Virus record (IMG/VR): IMGVR_UViG_3300045988_054519
Location: 1-58,288 of that record
Source of the DNA: a virus
Reading direction: 5' to 3' (one strand)
Length of the DNA: 58,288 nt
Shown here: piece after piece, positions 536 through 40,807 of the stretch
Numbering within the stretch: the stretch's first letter is position 1
How the letters are laid out: each line of letters begins with the position of its first letter
The notes under the pieces: generated by a model
Told to the model about the DNA's origin: nothing
The model's database searches: none
Seen by the model: only the letters and a program-made list of their open reading frames with translations
Program-made: the position numbers and the translations under genes

Positions 536-1160
536 TGTCTTCTCCTTTCTCTGTCGAAAAATATAAATCCTCGCTTTGCATATACGGTGTTCCGAATGTG
601 TGGTAGTGAAGTGTCCGGAAATAATACATATCATCCGGGTATTCATTATCCGCAAGTGCATTTTTTACCGCTGCCGTAACACTCTCCGTCCAACCGTAGT
701 TTTCAAAGTTATTCCATTTGGTAACTGCAAACTGTTCATCCTGGTAAACGACCTCACGAACCGTACTTGGGAATATGTCGCTGTTGATACGGTTAAGTAT
801 CGTCAACGCAACCATTGTCTGCGTTTCCACCGTCTGATTTCCGGCTTCACAAAACACCGTGGTACATAATAGGCGGTATTCCTCATCATTAAGGCTTATA
901 TCCGCCCAACTACATTTATGCGGTTCTGCGGTCGTAGGCTCAACAGACTTCACTTTCTCACTATCCGTCTGCCGTACAATGCTGACCGTTTCAATTATCG
1001 TTTCTGTTTCCGGTTCAGACTCTTCCGTGGTTGTTCGGTTATGGTTTATCGTGGCGACAATTACTAGCATCAACATCAATGCTATAAACACTATTGCGCC
1101 GGTGTATGTCGCCCACGGTATGGAATGGATGAACCGTTTAAATTTATTCCTCTTTACCAT
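525..1160 (-). CDS. Membrane-anchored SleB-like cell-wall hydrolase
   Basis: Motif block CTTVFCEAGNQ...ALTILNRINSDIFPSTVREVVYQDEQFAV is typical of the SleB/Hydrolase_2 family. N-terminal TM helix GAIVFIALMLMLVIV. ATG 1160 follows AGGTGG. Confidence 0.75.
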   Translation of the reverse strand: MVKRNKFKRFIHSIPWATYTGAIVFIALMLMLVIVATINHNRTTTEESEPETETIIETVSIVRQTDSEKVKSVEPTTAEPHKCSWADISLNDEEYRLLCTTVFCEAGNQTVETQTMVALTILNRINSDIFPSTVREVVYQDEQFAVTKWNNFENYGWTESVTAAVKNALADNEYPDDMYYFRTLHYHTFGTPYMQSEDLYFSTEKGEDNGN

Positions 1161-1920
1161 TGTCGCCACCTAAAAACTTGTTCACGAAATACAACTGTCC
1201 TTTCCCCGTTACCTTGGGAGTGATGGTTATCCTCACACTTCCGTCCGGGTTCTGTATGCTTCTTTCCTTGACTTCAAATAAACCCTGCTGTACGTATCTC
1301 TGAATTGGCATATTATAGGAAGAACCGCTTTTCATAAGGTAGCCATTATCTCTAAGCCACGCGAATAACCGTTTCTGACCTATCTGTACACCGTTCTGAC
1401 ATATTATCTTTGCCAAATCTCCGACAAGGATTGATGTATTACTTGTCGCTACGGCATCGGCGAAAATAGTTTTCGGTCTGTCATATTCGATTTTGGCTTT
1501 CTGATGTTCGATTATGCGGTCTCTTTCCGCAATCTTGTTATTTGCCACCATAAGAGCCTTAGCAAGTAACTCATCATCCGTCATTGTTTCTTGTCCGGCT
1601 ATGTAACCGCCGTTCTTTCTGATTGACGGAAGAACCTCTGATGTAACCCAATCTGTAAACCTCTCTGCGCTATCTTTACGGCTCTGAAAAATTGTCTTGT
1701 AAAGGTTGGCTTCATTGATAAATATCATCTTCTGTGTTCCACCTTTTGTAGGGGTTTCCATAGTGCGGATACCCTTTGCTGACAACCTCTGCCTTACATT
1801 TCCTACGTTCGCTATCTCCAATGCTTTACATACATCTGCTAAACAAAACATAGGTTCGTTATCCTTGGTTACTGTTCGGATTTCTCCGAACTCTTCATTA
1901 TTGAATATTTGTAAATCCAT
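1144..1920 (-). CDS. Phage antirepressor (Bro-N plus KilAC/ANT-like domains)
   Basis: N-terminal FNNEEFGEIRTV..PMFCLADVCKALE (Bro-N-like) and C-terminal TSILVGDLAKI..GQKRLFAWLRDNGYL (ANT/KilAC-like). Lies directly downstream of the cro-like gene. Confidence 0.8.
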   Translation of the reverse strand: MDLQIFNNEEFGEIRTVTKDNEPMFCLADVCKALEIANVGNVRQRLSAKGIRTMETPTKGGTQKMIFINEANLYKTIFQSRKDSAERFTDWVTSEVLPSIRKNGGYIAGQETMTDDELLAKALMVANNKIAERDRIIEHQKAKIEYDRPKTIFADAVATSNTSILVGDLAKIICQNGVQIGQKRLFAWLRDNGYLMKSGSSYNMPIQRYVQQGLFEVKERSIQNPDGSVRITITPKVTGKGQLYFVNKFLGGDNGKEE

Positions 1921-2175: not shown

Positions 2176-2272
2176 GTAACTTATCAAGTTACTTTCATTA
2201 TATCCTTTTTTTGTAACTTGTCAAGTTATTTTTTACTTGACTTGTAACTTTTTAGTGATATAATGAAGTTAC
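2176..2272. promoter_or_regulatory. Divergent lysis/lysogeny control region with repeated operators
   Basis: GTAACTTATCAAGTTAC (2176-2192), GTAACTTGTCAAGTTAT (2213-2229), and half-sites GTAACTT (2244-2250) and AAGTTAC (2266-2272) flanking TATAAT (2259-2264). Confidence 0.7.
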
Positions 2273-2292
2273 CAATAGGAAAGGAGGAACAT

Positions 2293-2649
2293 ATGATGTC
2301 AATTGGAGACAGAATTAAAAAACGCCGTGAACTCTTGAATATGCCACAAGTTGAACTTGCCGGTAAAATTCAAGTATCAAAACAGACATTATATAAGTAT
2401 GAGAACAATATCATAACGAACATTCCGAGTGATAAGCTTGAAAGCATCGCAAAGGTTCTTGATATTTCGCCATCATATTTAATGGGTTGGGATGATAATC
2501 TTACGGATGATACTGCAGATCTAATTCCTGATTTGCTGTCCGATGCAGAACTGTTAGAAAATGTTAAGCGATTAAAAGTCCTTAACGCGGAACACCGGAG
2601 AACTATATTCGACAATATAACCTATTGGTACGAGAAAGAGGGGCACTAG
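2293..2649 (+). CDS. CI-like XRE-family repressor
   Basis: IGDRIKKRRELLNMPQVELAGKIQVSKQTLYKYENN HTH. ATG 2293 follows AAGGAGG. The ORF-track start at 2263 overlaps the -10 box. Confidence 0.8.
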   Translation: MMSIGDRIKKRRELLNMPQVELAGKIQVSKQTLYKYENNIITNIPSDKLESIAKVLDISPSYLMGWDDNLTDDTADLIPDLLSDAELLENVKRLKVLNAEHRRTIFDNITYWYEKEGH

Positions 2650-3019: not shown

Positions 3020-3724
3020 ATGGATAATAATAATCAATTTTATCAGCAACCACCACAATGGCAACAACCGTTCCCACCGCAACCACAACCGCGACCATAC
3101 AAGCTAAAAGGCACCGCAGCGCTCGTTTTAGGTATCATAGGTATAGTAACATCATTTATATTTGTCGGCGGTATTCTAGGCATTATAGCGATTGTGCTAG
3201 GTGCAACCGGTTCAAGCGCGAACAAAAGATACGGTTATAAGGGTGGAACCGCCACAGCCGGTCTTGTCCTTGGCTCTATTGCAACTGCATTAATGGCAAT
3301 CACAATAATAATTGCTGTATCAGGTAGCAATACTTCATCTTCAAAAACCGATTTGTCTAAAGATGATTTTGCCGCTACCTGCTCTGAACTCAACTATAAA
3401 GATGTTAAGCGCAATCCCGATAAGTATAAAGGACAGAATTTTTACATTGATGTGCAAATATTTGACGTATCAACCTCTTTCGGTACTACCACATACAAAG
3501 TGTTCACTAAAGACCCGGAATACGATATTTACGATGGCGATATGTTCTTTGTAACGGATAAGAGAGATACATCTGCTAAAGACTACGAAAAGCTGTTAGA
3601 AGAAGATATAATAAGAATATACGGAACTTTCAATGGACTTGTAGATACCACAAATTTCATTGACGGTTCAAGCGGTCAAGAGATAAACCTTGATATGTTC
3701 TATGCAGATATTTTATCGAAATAA
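3020..3724 (+). CDS. Lysogen-expressed membrane protein (Pro/Gln-rich N-terminus, DUF4190-like TM block, beta-rich C-terminal domain); candidate superinfection-exclusion moron
   Basis: ATG 3020 follows AAGGAGAG. TM segments GTAALVLGIIGIVTSFIFVGGILGIIAIVLGA and AGLVLGSIATALMAITIIIAV. Co-oriented with the CI-like gene. Confidence 0.6.
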   Translation: MDNNNQFYQQPPQWQQPFPPQPQPRPYKLKGTAALVLGIIGIVTSFIFVGGILGIIAIVLGATGSSANKRYGYKGGTATAGLVLGSIATALMAITIIIAVSGSNTSSSKTDLSKDDFAATCSELNYKDVKRNPDKYKGQNFYIDVQIFDVSTSFGTTTYKVFTKDPEYDIYDGDMFFVTDKRDTSAKDYEKLLEEDIIRIYGTFNGLVDTTNFIDGSSGQEINLDMFYADILSK

Positions 3725-27695: not shown

Positions 27696-27769
27696 AACTC
27701 ACACATAGATGGTTTTGGGATAATACAGACAACCAACAACTATATTCCCATTTCGTTTATATGTGAAAG

Positions 27770-27852
27770 CGCAGATGCAAGGAGTCGAACCTTGACGGCA
27801 TTTCTGCCGGATAGCTTAGCAAGCTACTGTGATACCATTACACCACATCTGC
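27770..27852 (-). tRNA. tRNA-Ser(GCU): tRNA-Ser (anticodon GCU), type II
   Basis: Hand fold: GCAGATG/CATCTGC acceptor, 3-bp D stem, GTAGC-TTGCTAA-GCTAT anticodon arm, variable arm CGGCA-GAAA-TGCCG, CAAGG-TTCGACT-CCTTG T arm. No encoded CCA. Confidence 0.85.
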
Positions 27853-28859
27853 ACATTTTGGAACGGCAAGTCCCTACTACTACAATACCTATCTTGCCAT
27901 TCCAAAAAGTAAAACATAATTAAGATTTCTCTTTATTCACCATACATACAGCCATATTCTGCCACTGTGACGACAAGTCCGAGCCTTTGGGAGCGACCCT
28001 AAGGCTTCTTGCCGCTTTCAAGCACACGCGGGATTGATACCCACAAATTTCACGGTTCTTTCGGAATATTATCGTGTTCGCCATTCGATAATTGTTAGAA
28101 TGAAATCGTGCCATACCGCTACTTTAACGAGTTACTTGTGTTATATTCGGATTTCTCCGGTTTCAAGGCACACTGCTTAATTTGAGATTTTCCGTGATTT
28201 GTCCGTGGTCTCTCATTCCACGAACTTCAACGGATTATTCCTACACCGTAGGCGTCTATTATTCACAGCCACAAGTCCTCTGCCCTTGGCTTCTCTATGA
28301 TGATACACCACGCAAGCATTGTTGACGGTTTCCGTCTCCCTGCCGTACCTCACAGTACAGCAAAAGATATTAGCATATCCGGTATCCCGATTATGCCTAT
28401 CTCGTTTTCTCGCGTGTCTCGGCAAGGCTGAAAAACCTCTCTCCACCGAGATAATCATGTTTTAAACAAAACGGCCGGAGTCGGACCGGCATCAAGGTCA
28501 GAAAGGATGAAAAAACCTTTGCTTCGCCAATTAAGCTACGTTTTGCGCCGGTATGCAAACAACCGCACGTCTGCATACCACATACTTTTAAGAGGAGTTA
28601 TAACATGTCATCCGCCTATCACGGAACGTGGGAAACAAATAAAACCACGGGTTGATTTCCACAATGCCGTTTGTGTGCAGTGGGATACGCACACAAGCAG
28701 ACATCTTAATGTTCTGTCCGAACAAACCCCGCCGAACCGTCTCTCACGGTTCTTAACAGAATAGTCCTAGCGGAGAAAGGGGGTTCATGATAAATATGGA
28801 ATACAGATATATCATGTGGGGAAGAGCCATTCAGCCGTCCATCTGAACCTCTTCCCGAA
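27853..28859 (-). ncRNA. Candidate large structured ncRNA (GOLLD/ROOL-like class or novel), about 1 kb between two tRNAs
   Basis: No credible ORF on the transcribed strand. Many perfect 7-11-bp helices (see finding). Contains an embedded tRNA-like element and looks more G+C-rich than its flanks. Confidence 0.45.
28466..28545 (-). ncRNA. Embedded tRNA-like element with an aberrant anticodon region
   Basis: CAAAACG/CGTTTTG acceptor, GCTT-AATTGGCG-AAGC D arm, GCCGG-TCCGACT-CCGGC T arm. The anticodon stem is either AAGGT/ACCTT enclosing a 16-nt loop, or AAAGG/CCTTT with 9-nt loop TTTTTTCAT. Confidence 0.45.
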
Positions 28860-28930
28860 CGGGAGCAATGGGAATTGAACCCATATCCCGGCAGTCAAAG
28901 TGCCGTGTCTTGCCATTAAACGATGCCCCT
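28860..28930 (-). tRNA. tRNA-Gln(UUG): tRNA-Gln (anticodon UUG)
   Basis: Hand fold: AGGGGCA/TGCTCCC acceptor (A1:C72 mismatch, G4:U69), GTTT/AGAC D stem, CGGCA-CTTTGAC-TGCCG, ATGGG-TTCAATT-CCCAT. No encoded CCA. Confidence 0.8.
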
Positions 28931-30184: not shown

Positions 30185-30346
30185 CTGTTGGGCCTCCTTC
30201 CTGGAAATAAAAAAAACAAACGAAAAGAAAATACATCAGGCGATTTGTTCTGCTCTGTGTATTTTTTAAAATCGTTTGTTTGTCGTGTGCCGGATTGTTC
30301 CAGCTATCGTATGTGCAATAGCAATATATTGTTGTTGATGACATCA

Positions 30347-30375
30347 ACTATATCACATAGATTTTATTTTATCAA
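30347..30375 (-). promoter_or_regulatory. Sigma-70-type promoter upstream of terS
   Basis: Minus strand TTGATA (30375-30370), 17 nt, TATAGT (30352-30347). About 160-nt leader to terS. Confidence 0.5.
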
Positions 30376-30513
30376 GTAAATAAAAAAAATAATATCGGAA
30401 ATAATTTTGATTTTCACTTGACAAAAAAGAGAAAATGGTGTATTTACGCGCGCACGCGCCCGCTCTCTCATATATTAATACGACTGTTAAGGAGTATTAA
30501 TATATATTTTAAT

Positions 30514-30625
30514 AATCTAAATCTAATCTAAATCTAAATCTAAGTCTCAGGTTACAATTTGTTACAATTCCGTAACATTTTGTATACAAGTTGTATACAA
30601 GTTGTATACAGATTGTAATCAGAAC
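30514..30625. repeat. Repeat hub: AATCTA-type tandem repeats, GTTACAAT iterons and three 11-bp-phased palindromes TTGTATACAA
   Basis: aatctaaatctaatctaaatctaaatcta (30514-30543); gttacaatttgttacaattccgtaaca (30551-30577); ttgtatacaa at 30580, 30591 and 30602. Confidence 0.9.
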
Positions 30626-30667
30626 CGCGCAGCCCCTTATTTTACGGCATTTTTGCGCAATAAAAAA

Positions 30668-30690
30668 GAACGCCCGGAGGCGTTCAATCT
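30668..30690 (-). terminator. Rho-independent terminator after ORF 30698..30886
   Basis: Minus strand GAACGCC-tccg-GGCGTTC followed by TTTTTTATT. Confidence 0.75.
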
Positions 30691-30886: not shown

Positions 30887-30995
30887 TTATTCCGCCTCCT
30901 CTCCGACCTTAACAAAAGCTACTAATCCGCTGTAATAATTCATGATTATTTACCATTTGCGTTACTGTAACGCCCTTTCTTTATTTGATATATTC

Positions 30996-31024
30996 ATCAT
31001 AGCGCGCTTGCGCTATGCTGTCAA
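30996..31024 (-). promoter_or_regulatory. Near-consensus promoter with a palindromic operator in the spacer
   Basis: Minus strand TTGACA-gcATAGCGCaagcGCGCTAT-GAT (17-nt spacer; the -10 hexamer TATGAT overlaps the right half-site). Confidence 0.65.
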
Positions 31025-31041
31025 TACCTTATTTTAAATTT

Positions 31042-31269
31042 TTAAAAATATTTGATTTTTTCGGCATCCGTCGGGATGACTTCCAAGATGTCGCCCGGCT
31101 GGCATCTTAATAATAGACAAATCCGGTTGATTATCTCAGGCGTTACCATTTCGCCGGATCTGATTAGTGCCGCCGTCCTGCTTGACAATGTTTTGTTCTT
31201 CAATAATTGCGATTGAGAATATCCGCGCGCCTTGAGTGCTGCGAATATATCTATCTTATATTTCATCAT
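31042..31269 (-). CDS. Small XRE/Cro-type HTH regulator (Aca-like candidate)
   Basis: MKYKIDIFAALKARGYSQSQLLKNKTLSSRTAALIRSGE HTH. ATG 31269 follows GGAGGT. Confidence 0.7.
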   Translation of the reverse strand: MMKYKIDIFAALKARGYSQSQLLKNKTLSSRTAALIRSGEMVTPEIINRICLLLRCQPGDILEVIPTDAEKIKYF

Positions 31270-31326
31270 ATTATTATGTACCTCCATTCTGGAGCGGATC
31301 GGCTCCGGTTGAAAATCTTTAAATCT

Positions 31327-31355
31327 ACTATATAGATTATAGCGCGAAATGTCAA
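31327..31355 (-). promoter_or_regulatory. Promoter of the HTH gene
   Basis: Minus strand TTGACA-tttcGCGCTATAATcta-TATAGT (17-nt spacer). Contains the GCGCTAT half-site. Confidence 0.6.
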
Positions 31356-31388
31356 GATAAATTTTTCAAAAAATATTTGCAAAAGCTA

Positions 31389-31417
31389 TTGACATTATAG
31401 CTTTTGTGCGCTATAAT
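31389..31417 (+). promoter_or_regulatory. Consensus sigma-70 promoter driving the plus-strand island
   Basis: TTGACA-ttATAGCttttgtGCGC-TATAAT (17-nt spacer). The right half-site GCGCTAT overlaps the -10, the same architecture as 30996-31024. Confidence 0.7.
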
Positions 31418-31468
31418 CAAGCTATCAAATAAGAAAGGGCAGCCGCAAAGCTGCAAAGGTAAAATAAA

Positions 31469-31645
31469 ATGGTTGATTTAATTAGTTTTGAGGAAATTGC
31501 CAAAAAACATACTGCCGGCGAATATATAGCCGTCGGCGATGATGGCCGAGAATATCCGGCCTCATATGTTCCAGATTATACGCCGGACGGTGTGATGTTC
31601 TTCTGTATACCGGCATCTGTAAGTATCAAAGGCTTTAATGAATGA
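31469..31645 (+). CDS. Small hypothetical protein (58 aa, below the ORF-track cutoff)
   Basis: My translation: MVDLISFEEIAKKHTAGEYIAVGDDGREYPASYVPDYTPDGVMFFCIPASVSIKGFNE. First ORF after promoter 31389. Confidence 0.45.
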   Translation: MVDLISFEEIAKKHTAGEYIAVGDDGREYPASYVPDYTPDGVMFFCIPASVSIKGFNE

Positions 31646-31827
31646 TGGGTATAATGTTGTATTCGATGATTCAAGTATCAGCGCCGCCGAGAACGAAAGA
31701 AAACGGCGAAAAGTCGAAAAATTCGCATAATTAAGGCAAGCCGGGGCGGCCATAACGGGGTTCAACTCCCCGGATTGCTTTTAACCCCGTTATGGGGTAT
31801 TATAAAACAAAAAGGAGGTCAACAGAT

Positions 31828-32112
31828 ATGACAAAAGTTGACATTGAAGAATTAAAGGAATTGAACTATGAGCAGGGTGCGGAACTCTTAACCGCTGCCG
31901 GATATGCCGAAAGTGACGGAGCCACGGCTGACGCATCAGACATAGCGGATTTCGTCCGGGATAATTATTGGAAACTCTACGATGAGGGCGGCGAAACAAT
32001 CGATACCGTTTCATGGGCGGAATGTTTTAATATTTTGAAACACAACGCCGGCGACCTTGACGACGAGGAGATTATCCGCGCCGGTTGGGAACGTATGGAG
32101 TATGTAGAGTAG
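31828..32112 (+). CDS. Small acidic protein, paralog A (anti-defence candidate)
   Basis: ATG 31828 lies 9 nt after AGGAGG. ELKELNYEQGAELLTAAGY...SWAECFNILK...GWERMEY aligns with paralog B. About 24 D/E against 7 K/R. Confidence 0.65.
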   Translation: MTKVDIEELKELNYEQGAELLTAAGYAESDGATADASDIADFVRDNYWKLYDEGGETIDTVSWAECFNILKHNAGDLDDEEIIRAGWERMEYVE

Positions 32113-32204
32113 CCGCCGCAGAGGATGCGCACCGGTTCAATTCCGGGGCGCGGTGTTACCGCTCCAAGGTGGGCGGATAAATTAAATTTAGGAGGTAACG
32201 AAAA

Positions 32205-32449
32205 ATGGAGTTGCAATGGTATCACGGCCGCGAGGTCACGGAGCAGGAACGAAAAGCAATTACGGAGGCACTCGGAGATTCAATGATGAAGACATTCAAC
32301 GATGGATAGACGATAGCATCATTACGTTGAACGGATGCCGAAACGGTCGGGATTGCGTGTGGATAATTACTGACAATTACGAGTGCGCCGTGTACGTCGA
32401 CAGCTTAAAAGAAATGGCAAACGCGGAAATAGAAAAACAACTGCTATAA
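32205..32449 (+). pseudogene. Split ORF: RBS-led frame A (32205..32309) stops, and the -1 frame (track ORF 32216..32449) carries the plausible C-terminus
   Basis: Frame A after AGGAGG reads MELQWYHGREVTEQERKAITEALGDSMMKTFNDG*. The -1 frame reads ...NDEDIQRWIDDSIITLNGCRNGRDCVWIITDNYECAVYVDSLKEMANAEIEKQLL. Confidence 0.45.
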
Positions 32450-32454
32450 CAACA

Positions 32455-32477
32455 GGGCGGTACATACCGCCCTTATT
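32455..32477 (+). terminator. Terminator-like hairpin
   Basis: GGGCGGTA-ca-TACCGCCC followed by TTATT. Confidence 0.55.
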
Positions 32478-32492
32478 CCGCGCGCCGTGGTG

Positions 32493-32521
32493 TTGACATA
32501 TCCGGCACGCCGGGGTATTAT
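32493..32521 (+). promoter_or_regulatory. Promoter of paralog B
   Basis: TTGACA, 17 nt, TATTAT. Confidence 0.6.
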
Positions 32522-32591
32522 GATTTTATAATTATATTTTTACACACTTTGAATAAGAGTGTAAAACCGTGCAAAAAGGAGGTTGGCAGAT

Positions 32592-32882
32592 GTGATAATG
32601 GACATTGATTTTTTAAAAAAATTAAACTATGAAGAGGGTGCGGAACTCTTGGCACTGGTTGGATATGTGAAGAATTGCGGTGTTACGGCAGTTACCGCCT
32701 GGGCGTCGGAATACGCACAAGACGAATGTTGGATTCTTTACGATGCGAACGGAACAGAATCAGATATAATATCATGGATTGAATATTTCAACTTCTTAAA
32801 GAAACCCCCGCGGAGTGATGCCGATATTGCCATTGCGAGATGGGAGCGCGTGAATTGGCGAATTGCACGCAGGGAGCAATAG
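32592..32882 (+). CDS. Small protein, paralog B of 31828..32112
   Basis: FLKKLNYEEGAELLALVGY...SWIEYFNFLK...ARWERVNW. GTG 32592 lies 9 nt after AGGAGG (ATG 32598 is the alternative start). Confidence 0.6.
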   Translation: MIMDIDFLKKLNYEEGAELLALVGYVKNCGVTAVTAWASEYAQDECWILYDANGTESDIISWIEYFNFLKKPPRSDADIAIARWERVNWRIARREQ

Positions 32883-33113
32883 CAGCGTATCTGTTTTTTT
32901 ATTGGTCGGCAGTAGGACTGGTGTACCCAAAATCTGAAATTGTTCAGAACCGTCAAAAAAATTTTCGGAAATTTCACACAAAAATGGAAAAATGTTGAAA
33001 ACGGTTTTTCTAATTTAAAAAGTGCTACCCAGGGGGGTATTTTGAAAAAGGCATTATAATTTTGCAGAAAAACAAATTCTAAAAAACTTAAAATTGCATT
33101 TTTATAATAAAAT

Positions 33114-33908
33114 TCAAGTACCCAATGGGGTATTTTTGCGGTTGACTTGTTTTTTGCTTTGAACTGTTTTTATATCTTCCAACGCTTCTTCTATGCTCAT
33201 GCCCTTTTTTATAACTCTAAGGTACAATCTACTATATGTAGTTCCGTTAGATTTTGCTATATCTTTTAAATTAAACTCTTTGCCGTTGATTATAAAATTT
33301 TTAGATATTCTTCTATTCATAACCTGTTCTTTAGATGTCGCCCACCTGCAGTTATCAGGGGAATATCCATCATTGTTATTTATACGGTCAATAGAAAGAC
33401 CATTTCTATATCCATTATCAATAGACCATTTGTAAAAGTAAAAAAAACCGTCTTTTCCGCTCCATTCATCGCATACTCTTATTCCTCTTCCACCATACTT
33501 TTCATATCTAGTGTTTGATTCTAGTTCGCACCTTGAATGCATTCCAATAAAAATTTTATATATACTTAAATTTGAATATTTTTTAGGAACTCCACAAAGT
33601 TCTTTCATATTTTTTCTGTGCAAGCGCACTTTTTTTGTATGTTGTGACTTAATACTTGACGAGGTATATTTGTTGCCAAAATAGCAATTATCAGGGCAAT
33701 AATTTTTTGATCCATCTTTTCTATTCAATCGTAGATTTTTATTCCAACCGTTTTCTTTACACCATTTTCTAAATTTTTCTCTGTCTTTCCATTCATCGCA
33801 GACCTCAATTCCTTTAGCACCGTAATCCTTATAAGCTATGGATTTCTCATTATAACATCTTTTCATCATTTCATAATGCAAACCACCAATGGTATCTAAA
33901 TTTGCCAT
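33114..33908 (-). CDS. Homing-endonuclease-like protein (duplicated HNH/AP2-like DNA-binding module plus C-terminal HTH)
   Basis: Two copies of Y..YG(A/G)(K/R)GI.VCDEW......F..W...NG(W/Y)...L(S)(I/L).R...(D)G.Y.P.NC. Second copy ends RWATSKEQ. The segment is very AT-rich. Confidence 0.55.
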   Translation of the reverse strand: MANLDTIGGLHYEMMKRCYNEKSIAYKDYGAKGIEVCDEWKDREKFRKWCKENGWNKNLRLNRKDGSKNYCPDNCYFGNKYTSSSIKSQHTKKVRLHRKNMKELCGVPKKYSNLSIYKIFIGMHSRCELESNTRYEKYGGRGIRVCDEWSGKDGFFYFYKWSIDNGYRNGLSIDRINNNDGYSPDNCRWATSKEQVMNRRISKNFIINGKEFNLKDIAKSNGTTYSRLYLRVIKKGMSIEEALEDIKTVQSKKQVNRKNTPLGT

Positions 33909-33943
33909 TATAAGCACCTACCTTTCTAATATCTATTATAACA

Positions 33944-34006: not shown

Positions 34007-34222
34007 ATGTCAAAGTCGAAAACATCAGCAGAAGTTAAAAATAGATGGAATGAAAAAAACTATGACCGAATAACTGTTATGGCACCAAAGGGCAAAAAAG
34101 ATGAGTGGCTTGCTTTAGCGAAAAAGAAAGGTTTTAAGGGTCTGAATGGATTTATTATTGATTGTATAAATAATTGCACAGAAAACCAGTGCAACGCGAA
34201 AAAAGTTTCAAAAAAAATTTAA
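34007..34222 (+). CDS. Arc/RHH-like small DNA-binding protein (antitoxin-like)
   Basis: SAEVKNRWNEKNYDRITVMAPKGKKDEWLALAKKKGFKGLNGFIIDCI matches the common ribbon-helix-helix pattern K..Y..I....PKG.K......A...G.S.N.FI. Confidence 0.55.
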   Translation: MSKSKTSAEVKNRWNEKNYDRITVMAPKGKKDEWLALAKKKGFKGLNGFIIDCINNCTENQCNAKKVSKKI

Positions 34223-34240: not shown

Positions 34241-34507
34241 ATGCCATTAATAAATCATCAAGGGGAGAGAATTTCATACGAATGTGAAGATTTAATCAAG
34301 GAATTAGAGAATGATATTGCTGAATTTGGTGGCGATATGATAGTAGATGTCGTTACTATGAGGGCGAAAGGTGTAACACTCTACATTGATTACAATTTTG
34401 CCGAAGAGGGGAAACCGCCATTTGAATTGAGAGAATATGAGAGCCACAAATTGATGAAAGCATCTATGCTGTTGGCTTTACTGAAAATGGAAAATTCTAT
34501 ATGTTAA
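34241..34507 (+). CDS. Hypothetical protein, downstream partner of the RHH gene
   Basis: 88 aa. ATG lies 7 nt after GGAGGA. Confidence 0.5.
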   Translation: MPLINHQGERISYECEDLIKELENDIAEFGGDMIVDVVTMRAKGVTLYIDYNFAEEGKPPFELREYESHKLMKASMLLALLKMENSIC

Positions 34508-35375: not shown

Positions 35376-35404
35376 ATAATACAGTGCAATCTGCTATTTG
35401 TCAA
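35376..35404 (-). promoter_or_regulatory. Near-consensus promoter dedicated to the cas5-like gene
   Basis: Minus strand TTGACA (35404-35399), 17 nt, TATTAT (35381-35376). Confidence 0.65.
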
Positions 35405-39439: not shown

Positions 39440-40807
39440 CTAAAAATTCTTCAACTGAATTTCGATGTTGTCATTGACAATAACAATTTTAGATATTATA
39501 GTTTTAAGTATCTTATTTTTGGTTTGCTTGTCGATTTTGTCCCAAACGTCGGCAAGCTTTTTTATATTGTCATAGACAAATTCTTTCTTCTGCGTGTTCT
39601 TTGCCGCCTTGCTTTCCTCTTCAATCGCGGCGGTAATACGTTTTACTTCCTCTTCCGCCTGCTTAATCAACTCAATTACAGTGTCATTGCCCTCGGCATA
39701 AAGGATATACAGTCGTTTTAATTTGTTTTTCTCGCGGCTTAATTGTGACTGCATTATCTGTAATTTCGTTTCCTTTTCTTTTGGCTTGTATTTCGACAGA
39801 TTGACGGATATTTCAAGCATCTGTTTCTCTACCTGCTTTTCAATGTCTGACGCCCACTGTGGTTTGCTGTCGCAATCGTGGTTATAATTCGGAAGATAAT
39901 CAAGGTCTATGTTCTTTGAACAACAATATATTTTCCTTGGAGAGTCCTCTTTTTGCCCCCATTTCTGGTAGCGCATCGCACAACCACATACGCCGCAATA
40001 GCATAACCCCGTTAAAAGGTTGGTAGGGTGTGCAATCCAACTCTTGGCATCGTGCCTTGACTTTCTGATCTCCTGCGCAAGTTCGTAGCGCTCGATGTCA
40101 AATATCGGTTCGTGTTTGCCTTGATACACCTTGCCTTTGTACGGTATCATTCCGATGTTTACTACACTTGTCAAGATTTTCCGCGCTACCGGCTCACCGC
40201 TGTAATGGCAAATTCTAGCGATACGGCCGTCCGAATACCCATTGATATACAATTCAAGTGCATTCCTTGCCGTTTCGGCGCGCTCCGGAATTGGTATTAA
40301 AATACCCAATTCTTTATCATATGAATAGCAGAATGGCAAATTGCCACCGCCCATCCAAAAACCTCTCTTGACACGTTCCAACATTCCACCGCGCATACGG
40401 AGCATCATAGTATTTCTGTCATACTCTGCTACGGCAGCCATAACCTGCGTCTGAAATTTATCCTGCGGTGTTTCGTACCTAGCGAAATCGTGAACGCTTT
40501 CTACGCAAATTCCCTTTGGCGTAAAGATTTTTTCAATCATATACAGCGCATCCACGGTATCACGCGCAAGTCTGTCTAGCTTGTAGACAACAATAACGTC
40601 GATTTTAGCCATATCAGATATAAGCCTTTGAAGTTCAACACGTTTTGACATTTCCATTCCGGATAATCCGGCATCGACATAATACTCCTTGATAATCAAT
40701 TGATGTTTACGGCAATATTCGTCAATGTCACGTTTTTGGCTTTCAAGTCCGTAACCTTCCTCCGCTTGTCTTTCTGTAGAAACTCTTATATAAGCAACAC
40801 ATTCCAT
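39440..40807 (-). CDS. int: Large serine recombinase (phage integrase)
   Basis: YIRVSTERQAEEGYGLESQ catalytic-Ser resolvase domain, recombinase domain, Zn-ribbon CYCGVCGCAMRY...YCCS and C-terminal coiled coil. 455 aa. Confidence 0.9.
   Translation of the reverse strand: MECVAYIRVSTERQAEEGYGLESQKRDIDEYCRKHQLIIKEYYVDAGLSGMEMSKRVELQRLISDMAKIDVIVVYKLDRLARDTVDALYMIEKIFTPKGICVESVHDFARYETPQDKFQTQVMAAVAEYDRNTMMLRMRGGMLERVKRGFWMGGGNLPFCYSYDKELGILIPIPERAETARNALELYINGYSDGRIARICHYSGEPVARKILTSVVNIGMIPYKGKVYQGKHEPIFDIERYELAQEIRKSRHDAKSWIAHPTNLLTGLCYCGVCGCAMRYQKWGQKEDSPRKIYCCSKNIDLDYLPNYNHDCDSKPQWASDIEKQVEKQMLEISVNLSKYKPKEKETKLQIMQSQLSREKNKLKRLYILYAEGNDTVIELIKQAEEEVKRITAAIEEESKAAKNTQKKEFVYDNIKKLADVWDKIDKQTKNKILKTIISKIVIVNDNIEIQLKNF

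Follow-up and report, generated by a model that had tools for sequence, protein, structure and literature searches.

A putative repressor-gated platform for two-way expression of accessory genes in a temperate gut phage

What are three near-consensus promoters doing within 420 bp of a phage genome, grouped around a single small regulatory gene? The question is raised by the virus record IMGVR_UViG_3300045988_054519, which was analysed over its full length of 58,288 nucleotides (the window). Here the promoters P1, P2 and P3 surround a gene for a 75-amino-acid (aa) helix-turn-helix (HTH) protein, an arrangement that we call the hub (Table 1). Our analysis indicates that the hub is probably a platform from which a temperate gut phage expresses accessory genes in two directions under the control of a repressor, with a cargo whose likeliest role is counter-defence or establishment. 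The comparison set consisted of the related loci L001–L016 and L024–L028, which have a skeleton in common: a 229-aa gene, a short leftward cassette, P1, the HTH gene, P2/P3, a plus-strand island and a convergent 234-aa gene.

Thirteen promoters in the whole window score 11 or 12 of the 12 consensus positions, and three of these are the hub promoters. P1 reads TTGACA-GC-ATAGCGC-AAGC-GCGCTAT-GAT and P3 reads TTGACA-TT-ATAGCTT-TTGT-GCGCTAT-AAT, giving the common frame TTGACA-N13-GCGC-TAT(G/A)AT. The motif GCGCTAT/ATAGCGC occurs six times in the 58 kb, counted on both strands, and four of the six copies lie in P1, P2 and P3. The exact palindrome ATAGC-N8-GCTAT was found twice in the window, at the operators O1 and O3 within the spacers of P1 and P3; block shuffles yielded a mean of 0.068 copies, and at least two copies in 1 of 500 shuffles. 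No promoter of the window other than those of the hub was found to carry the operator. An earlier, sequence-only reading had listed the three consensus promoters, the GCGCTAT motif common to them and the small HTH gene, and all three observations hold at the positions given there, with palindromes in P1 and P3 and a half-site in P2. A further inverted repeat straddles the −35 box of P3 and shows a compensatory A/T change in L013 (CATAAGCTAT..ATAGCTTATG); another protein may bind there, or the repeat may act as a terminator on the minus strand before P2.

Table 1. Features of the hub and its surroundings in the window (position 1 is the first nucleotide of the record)
Feature	Coordinates	Strand	Remarks
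CI-like repressor gene	2263..2649	plus	
Ant anti-repressor gene	1144..1920	minus	in minus-strand operon
Immunity switch	2197..2264		between CI-like repressor gene and Ant operon
Intrinsic terminator, strong	30668..30685	minus	GAACGCCTCCGGGCGTTC + T run; closes P1 cassette before pac/cos-like repeats and 229-aa gene
Cys-rich P1 cargo gene, 62 aa	30698..30886	minus	in 11 loci; absent from L002, L011, L014; no family match
Remnant (18 codons) of 181-aa cargo gene	30887..30943	minus	MNYYSGLVAFVKVGEEAE; intact in L001, L003, L014, L016
P1 leader	30944..30995	minus	ATCAAATAAAGAAAGGGC, hairpin GCGTTAC-AG-GTAACGC (30959–30973), AAATGGTAAA; paralogous to P3 leader
P1 promoter	31024..30996	minus	TTGACA-17-TATGAT, 11/12 sigma-70 consensus; downstream of HTH gene, fires leftward
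O1 operator	30999..31016		perfect 7-N4-7 palindrome ATAGCGC-GCTT-GCGCTAT; fills P1 spacer, overlaps −10
HTH gene, allele A, 75 aa	31042..31269	minus	Cro/C1-type; Pfam HTH_26, E 4.4e-10; putative repressor of P1 and P3
P2 promoter (HTH gene's own)	31327..31355	minus	TTGACA-17-TATAGT, 11/12; single GCGCTAT half-site (31339–31345) in spacer
Inverted repeat, 10 bp	31380..31406		CAAAAGCTAT-N7-ATAGCTTTTG; straddles P3 −35
P3 promoter	31389..31417	plus	TTGACA-17-TATAAT, 12/12; start of plus-strand island
O3 operator	31397..31414		ATAGCTT-TTGT-GCGCTAT; same spacer position as O1; left arm imperfect
P3 leader	31418..31468	plus	ATCAAATAAGAAAGGGC, hairpin GCAGC-CGCAAA-GCTGC (31439–31454), AAAGGTAAAATAAA
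Decayed cargo	31469..31730	plus	58-aa open reading frame (orf58, 31469–31645) and out-of-frame tail to 31730
Paralog A, 94 aa	31828..32112	plus	isoelectric point (pI) 4.05; 25 acidic, 7 basic residues; founding member of ~90-aa acidic family
Frameshifted 85-aa cargo gene	32205..32449	plus	MELQWYHGREV...; intact in L008 and L016
G+C-rich hairpin	32454..32473	plus	AGGGCGGTACATACCGCCCT; after 85-aa gene; T tail on plus strand weak
P4 promoter of paralog B	32493..32521	plus	TTGACA-17-TATTAT, 11/12; spacer palindrome CCGGCACGCCGG (32502–32513)
Paralog B, 96 aa from GTG start	32592..32882	plus	pI 4.64; GGAGG 9 nt upstream; P0030 is a 96-aa homolog
Two TACCC-N4-GGGTA hairpins	33026..33132	plus	T run after each; island end; plus-strand reading inferred
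Solitary type I-B Cas5 homolog, 234 aa	34542..35246	minus	convergent with island; 95% conserved in all related loci
Promoter of Cas5 gene, consensus	35404..35376		
Serine integrase gene	39440..40807		

Does the HTH protein act on these sites? Across the related loci the C-terminus of the HTH proteins does not vary (CQPGDILEVIPTDEEKIKYF), their N-termini are similar, and their main differences fall in the segment of helices 2 and 3. Alleles A and B, for instance, agree at 15/19 N-terminal and 20/27 C-terminal positions, and at 10/29 positions of the stretch between. Each of the alleles A–D comes with its own palindrome at one fixed spot in both P1 and P3, the −35 box, the −10 box and the leader being alike. 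Allele A (this window and 10 other loci) is accompanied by ATAGCGC-N4-GCGCTAT at P1 and ATAGCTT-N4-GCGCTAT at P3; allele B (L001, L002, L004, L007, L010, L011 and L012) by ATATCT-N6-AGATAT at both promoters, with a third copy between the −35 boxes of P2 and P3; allele C (L025) by TCTA-ATAA-TAGG at P1 and TCTA-TTTT-TAGA at P3; and allele D (L028) by CACTA-AAAA-TAGTG at P1 and CACTA-TTTT-TAGTG plus a second copy at P3. In L027, which carries a further allele, G, the repeats at P3 are ATCAC..GTGAT. Because four coordinated exchanges of helix and operator at two promoters would otherwise be hard to explain, a dimer of the HTH protein very probably binds the allele-specific palindromes and represses P1 and P3. 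In a consensus promoter, a palindrome that fills the 17-bp spacer and overlaps the −10 box implies that repression works by occlusion, the mode reported for all tested families of anti-CRISPR-associated (Aca) regulators (PMC9410906). The regulatory core of the sequence-only reading, a small HTH repressor with operators inside strong promoters, is thus backed by the co-variation of four HTH alleles with their operators.

Joint exchange of this kind is familiar from the lambdoid heteroimmune regions (imm-lambda, imm434, imm21), in which the recognition helix and the operators were exchanged together between homologous flanks and mutually orthogonal regulator/operator sets resulted. The restriction-modification controller (C) proteins offer another parallel, as HTH proteins of about 75–80 aa that act on palindromic boxes overlapping a promoter and time expression after cell entry. 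However, no restriction-modification genes occur at the hub. The main target of a C protein is its own operon, which it first activates and later represses; the hub HTH would gate two promoters of foreign cargo. Among solved structures, the closest relative of the HTH protein was 3tyr (profile E 5.7e-6), which we take to be the VanU protein and which has the C-terminal motif C..GDI.E in common with it. The XRE-family protein 8q86 was the only other structure with E ≤0.1, and the solved anti-CRISPR regulators showed no detectable similarity in the solved-structure searches. VanU, the regulator of the vanG operon (3tyr/3tys), was also the best NCBIfam match; its profile has the same length (75 positions), but the match was weak (E 0.0023, 18 bits vs a cutoff of 150) and its genetic context is unrelated. 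CasPR-type DNA-binding anti-CRISPRs, which need CapR and AP2 domains, were dismissed as irrelevant to a 75-aa HTH protein.

The likeness of P1 and P3 extends beyond the operators, and the two are duplicated promoter-operator-leader cassettes. After each −10 box the leader runs ATCAA(A/T)TAA(A)GAAAGG(G), followed by a G+C-rich hairpin of 5–8 bp and by AAAGG/ATGGTAAA about 10 nt before the ATG. The position of the hairpin is fixed across the loci and is occupied by three unrelated stems (GCGTTAC/GTAACGC, GCAGC/GCTGC and CGCCC/GGGCG), each of which folds as predicted; L013 has a compensated variant, GCGCTAC/GTAGCGC. The P3 leader is kept even where the first cargo gene differs, and the leader of L015 is a hybrid in which a P1-type start is joined to the P3 hairpin, which shows exchange between the P1 and P3 copies. 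Bacillus STAB-SD elements likewise combine a Shine-Dalgarno-like box with a 5′ hairpin, and by analogy the leader may stabilise the mRNA or enhance expression. An Rfam search with the P3 leader of L001 gave only a weak, unusable match to DUF2815-RNA (E 0.68).

P1 has a short leftward cassette of its own to drive, a point absent from the earlier account, and the strong terminator behind that cassette marks P1 as the promoter of a short cassette and not of a late operon. This bears on whether the hub might instead be a second developmental switch, with the HTH protein as a Cro-like or late-gene gatekeeper and P1 as the start of the packaging/late operon. The hub has the early/replication genes on one side and, on the other, the pac/cos-like repeats with the 229-aa gene; this location would suit such a role, and late activators of Bacillota phages are often found at a position like that of the hub. 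However, the P1 transcript is stopped by the terminator after the cargo, and this cargo is variable, being absent or decayed in some phages. The window also has a canonical immunity switch of the CI/Cro type elsewhere, in which divergent consensus promoters with AAGTTAC/GTAACTT repeats lie between the CI-like repressor gene and the Ant operon. No conserved form of the CI operator AAGTTAC was found in the hub, and the hub operator occurs in no other promoter of the genome. The hub is therefore not the main immunity region and, unlike the lambdoid CI/Cro switch, it controls accessory cassettes whose two transcripts are both short and terminator-ended. Taken together, we regard a developmental switch as very unlikely.

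The phage that has this immunity switch is temperate and of siphovirus type, carries nearly all of its genes on the minus strand and encodes a serine integrase, a DnaD-like loader and the Ant anti-repressor. Its close relatives come from human-gut metagenomes, and some of them lie on contigs of 175–515 kb, which indicates prophages. A DNA similarity search against 50,697 phage records returned nothing relevant and no cultured phage record alike, and scans of species-representative genomes with the leader pattern and with Cas5 found no locus.

If the hub is a platform for accessory genes, what does it carry? The cargo varies among otherwise near-identical phages. On the P3 side about 20 unrelated families of small proteins were found, and on the P1 side the variants are a pair of 181-aa and 63-aa proteins, a pair of 95-aa and 93-aa proteins, or a Cys-rich protein of 62–64 aa alone. 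In the window itself three cargo genes are decayed: the 181-aa gene reduced to a remnant, the frameshifted 85-aa gene, and a fusion created by an internal deletion between a 101-aa and an 84-aa gene, as judged from L008 and L016 (both genes are intact in L016). Of the plus-strand island of small proteins proposed in the sequence-only reading, the two acidic paralogs stand, whereas orf58 and the 85-aa gene have to be given up as the products of the deletion fusion and the frameshift. Pfam, PHROGs, NCBIfam and PADLOC searches with the small proteins of the window returned nothing above threshold, and neither did Pfam searches with about 20 and PHROGs searches with 10 cargo proteins of the related loci. 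A match of the 91-aa protein of L011 and L014 to ArdA was sub-threshold (E 0.0099, 16.9 bits vs a cutoff of 27) and was discounted.

Several other elements were noticed in and around the cassettes. Proteins with the polyvalent-protein domain LPD29 are encoded at 1046–2068 of L028, in the allele-D island, and at 3531–4331 of L017, next to a gene of the acidic paralog family; they link the cassettes to a class of proteins with a presumed part in mobile element–host conflict. A free-standing HNH endonuclease (33114–33917, minus strand; phrog_3377, 5.8e-66) is present only in some loci (the window, L005/6 and L015), a distribution that agrees with its insertion into the accessory region by homing. 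A stretch of about 300 nt (L001, 6648–6960) is kept in nine related loci without a credible open reading frame and has its own TTGACG-17-TATAAT promoter after a terminator; it is possibly a non-coding RNA, with no match in Rfam. In the window, positions ~32905–33010 are a 3′ remnant of this stretch, and the P4/paralog-B cassette stands in place of its 5′ part. Rfam searches of the island at gathering and permissive thresholds gave only a 17-nt hairpin resembling the tmRNA T-arm (E 0.031, unusable). Intergenic hairpins resembling the tRNA T-arm (31756–31772 and ~32130–32150) had folding energies no different from those of shuffled sequences and were treated as terminator- or attenuator-like.

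The cargo includes the pair of acidic paralogs on the opposite strand, which agree with the earlier description in being related (43% identity, E 2e-22) and in the separate promoter of paralog B; this promoter, P4, is without the operator of the allele-A HTH protein. A profile search extended the family to 66 clusters (50% identity), in which most members are about 90 aa long and stand alone. An AlphaFold model built with a deeper alignment (predicted local distance difference test, pLDDT, 85) has two helices followed by a four-stranded sheet, and a new alpha+beta fold is confidently predicted. Foldseek searches of two paralog models (pLDDT 72 and 85) against PDB gave no significant match (best E values of 0.29–0.6, and 0.29 for the confident model), with a loose SnoaL-/VirB8-like likeness at a template-modelling (TM) score of about 0.4, and the first model matched only an uncharacterised viral homolog in BFVD. 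Chance-level hits of the paralog profile among PDB sequences, to S100 (E 0.23) and to the phage RNA-polymerase inhibitor p7 (E 0.7), were not used.

The genomic contexts of other family members are more telling. In an unrelated prophage (L020–22), a member lies between tail-fibre and lysis genes, where a TTGACA-ACCACGCATGTGCGTGG-TATGAT promoter with a perfect spacer palindrome precedes the paralog-like gene and a 139-aa HTH gene follows 4 nt later; the layout is like that of a textbook anti-CRISPR–Aca (acr-aca) operon. In L017 a paralog-like gene follows a 69-aa gene, with a promoter before each and AGGCACAAA boxes common to both, and the leader again has the form GAAAGG-hairpin-AAGGTAAAA. In L023 a member is part of a long array of small genes; the array also encodes an orphan methyltransferase (DUF4942) and an AcrIC5-like protein of 65 aa (E 6e-6, 26.7 bits vs a cutoff of 27). 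Further members are fused to RHH_1 (P0075) and HTH_3 (P0060) domains. By association, these contexts suggest a regulated, inhibitor-type protein.

The same fusions could also be read in the style of antitoxins, and the locus as one or more toxin-antitoxin or addiction modules, in which the HTH or a ribbon-helix-helix protein would be the antitoxin or regulator and the small proteins toxins or antitoxin domains. In line with this, the HTH protein next to the paralog-like gene of L020 weakly resembles the antitoxin HigA (E 0.03), a DUF4258 protein is present in the P1 cassette of L028, and in L017 a YafQ toxin is encoded close to the paralog-like gene. On the other hand, Pfam, PHROGs, PADLOC and NCBIfam scans found no toxin family in the cassettes of the window, the paralogs are proteins of strongly acidic composition that stand alone, cargo decays without loss of the HTH gene, and the confident paralog model has no RelE/ParE-like match. 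This explanation thus appears highly improbable.

What, then, points from an accessory platform to counter-defence? Adjacent to the hub and outside the P1/P3 cassettes, the convergent 234-aa gene encodes a genuine type I-B Cas5 homolog, as the sequence-only reading had supposed of its orphan cas5. It matched Cas5b in PADLOC at full length (3.5e-26 and 8.2e-24, the latter over residues 1–215), TIGR02593 above its cutoff and TIGR01895 below its cutoff (3.1e-23), and by Pfam alone it was marginal (E 0.0014). No other cas genes were seen among the window proteins scanned, a scan that was not exhaustive. Katz et al. showed that AcrIB3, a Cas5 homolog that is viral and of full length, is an inhibitor of type I-B immunity, and they reported its homologs outside CRISPR loci only in Listeria (bioRxiv 10.1101/2023.06.24.545427). 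The protein described here resembles AcrIB3, by family and description, in being phage-borne, solitary and homologous to type I-B Cas5 over the full length, and differs from it in coming from uncultured human-gut phages. It also suggests a host with a type I-B CRISPR system. Since a genuine Cas5b homolog adjoins the hub and AcrIB3 provides the precedent, a counter-defence neighbourhood is credible, and this part of the role proposed earlier is supported. For the paralogs and the other cargo, a role as anti-CRISPR or anti-restriction proteins is plausible, but no family or structure match was found.

Two small genes accompany the Cas5 homolog. An acidic 88-aa protein (34241–34507, plus strand) is encoded directly next to it and is kept in 15 of the 15 loci that include the region; in some loci it is preceded by a basic protein of 61–71 aa (phrog_13890; 34007–34222, plus strand, in the window). 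Both may work with the viral Cas5. An assignment of the 71-aa protein to the ribbon-helix-helix class was unsupported by a PDB search, and phrog_13890 (function unknown) remained the only match of this protein. On the other side of the hub, a full-length ROOL RNA (27902–28474, minus strand; Rfam RF03087, 366.6 bits, E 3e-84) is placed just downstream of the 229-aa gene among genes for tRNA-Ser, tRNA-Lys and tRNA-Gln (27769–27852, 28465–28546 and 28860–28930, minus strand). Upstream of the 229-aa gene lies a non-coding, repeat-rich stretch (30200–30660, minus strand) with three copies of (T)TGTATACAA(C), two of TTGTAAC, a (TTAGAT)n tract and a GC-rich GCGCGTGCGCGCG box, which is likely a pac/cos or terminase-binding region.

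A platform of this kind could also serve the prophage state. In that case, the cassettes would be morons for lysogenic conversion or superinfection exclusion, expressed from the prophage for the benefit of host or prophage, and the HTH protein would set their steady-state level. The island, with promoters and terminators of its own, runs counter to nearly all other genes of the genome, the phage is temperate, with a serine integrase and a CI-like repressor, homologs lie on contigs of 356–515 kb, and the cargo is gained and lost quickly. Nevertheless, this cargo is small, soluble and acidic, and PADLOC gave no defence-system match for paralogs A and B, the 62-aa gene or two downstream plus-strand genes. 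The paralog family occurs in a conjugative-element-like array by an AcrIC5-like gene and an orphan methylase, and in acr-aca-like operons, and the neighbour of the hub is an AcrIB3-like Cas5 and not a defence gene. We therefore consider morons unlikely.

The reading as a repressor-gated platform can be put as the following mechanism. Host RNA polymerase would recognise P1, P2 and P3 without phage factors, because all three are near consensus. Upon entry or induction, P1 (leftward) and P3 (rightward) would fire strongly, and the small cargo proteins would be made from mRNAs with the duplicated leader. P2 would supply the 75-aa HTH protein, whose dimer, on the 18-bp palindromes of P1 (perfect) and P3 (imperfect), would block RNA polymerase and end the burst; in the lysogen it would hold both cassettes low. 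Terminators would separate both cassettes from the packaging genes and the convergent cas5, and the cargo, including the acidic paralogs, would act alongside the adjacent AcrIB3-like viral Cas5. The timing, an early burst followed by shut-off, is suggested by the quality of the promoters and by the Aca precedent. That the P1/P3 cargo consists of anti-defence or establishment proteins is quite possible, and we hold this part of the reading only tentatively.

How close does this come to an acr-aca operon? In common with the latter (Aca1–Aca10; the N-terminal domain of AcrIIA1 in Listeria phages), the hub has a small HTH protein, an inverted repeat in a strong sigma-70 core promoter, small and fast-evolving cargo of no known function, and a site beside a known type of anti-CRISPR, the viral Cas5. 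AcrIIA1 is listed under HTH_26 (PMC9410906), the Pfam family that the hub HTH matches. Unlike in such operons, there is no single autoregulated promoter, and one repressor would gate two duplicated, opposite-facing promoter-leader cassettes. The HTH gene lies on the strand opposite to the P3 island and upstream of P1, and no cargo gene of the hub has shown or homology-inferred anti-CRISPR activity. Thus, Aca-like control logic is well supported, and the locus is not a canonical acr-aca operon; nor is its layout the classic one that the sequence-only reading saw in it, since the HTH gene does not close the cargo operon at its 3′ end but has a divergent promoter of its own.

Several points weigh against the platform as described. 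The HTH gene is divergent, with P2 as its own promoter, and is not the last gene of a cargo operon; its autoregulation is uncertain, since P2 has the half-site only in allele A. P1 is kept in all related loci except L027, which appears to have no clear copy, and the allele of L026 seems to lack a clear operator. Many of the loci are near-identical, so that the independent events would amount to about four allele swaps and not to 20 loci. Searches of the P1/P3 cargo against Pfam, PHROGs, NCBIfam, PADLOC, PDB and BFVD matched it to no anti-defence family or structure that is known. Morons expressed from prophages, too, typically form islands on the opposite strand in which promoters and terminators are their own.

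A bolder extension, which we put forward as somewhat doubtful, would see in the acidic paralogs a novel anti-defence family, widespread among the mobile elements of Bacillota and possibly directed, together with the viral Cas5, against type I-B CRISPR. On this view, anti-defence genes could be plugged into the hub and launched from it in two directions. Its pairs of repressor and operator would have split into orthogonal alleles, which would keep co-resident phages from silencing each other's counter-defence.

If the reading as a gated platform is true, the related loci would provide at least four natural, orthogonal repressor/operator pairs on one 75-aa scaffold and one promoter frame, useful for the study of HTH specificity and as synthetic parts for Bacillota. 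The combination of a consensus promoter, a spacer palindrome and a AAATAAGAAAGGG-hairpin leader would be a regulatory signature that finds counter-defence cargo of gut phages where homology-based tools fail. About 20 families of small proteins, the acidic paralogs foremost, would become candidate inhibitors, and the Cas5 homolog would extend the AcrIB3-type 'viral cas' anti-CRISPRs beyond Listeria.

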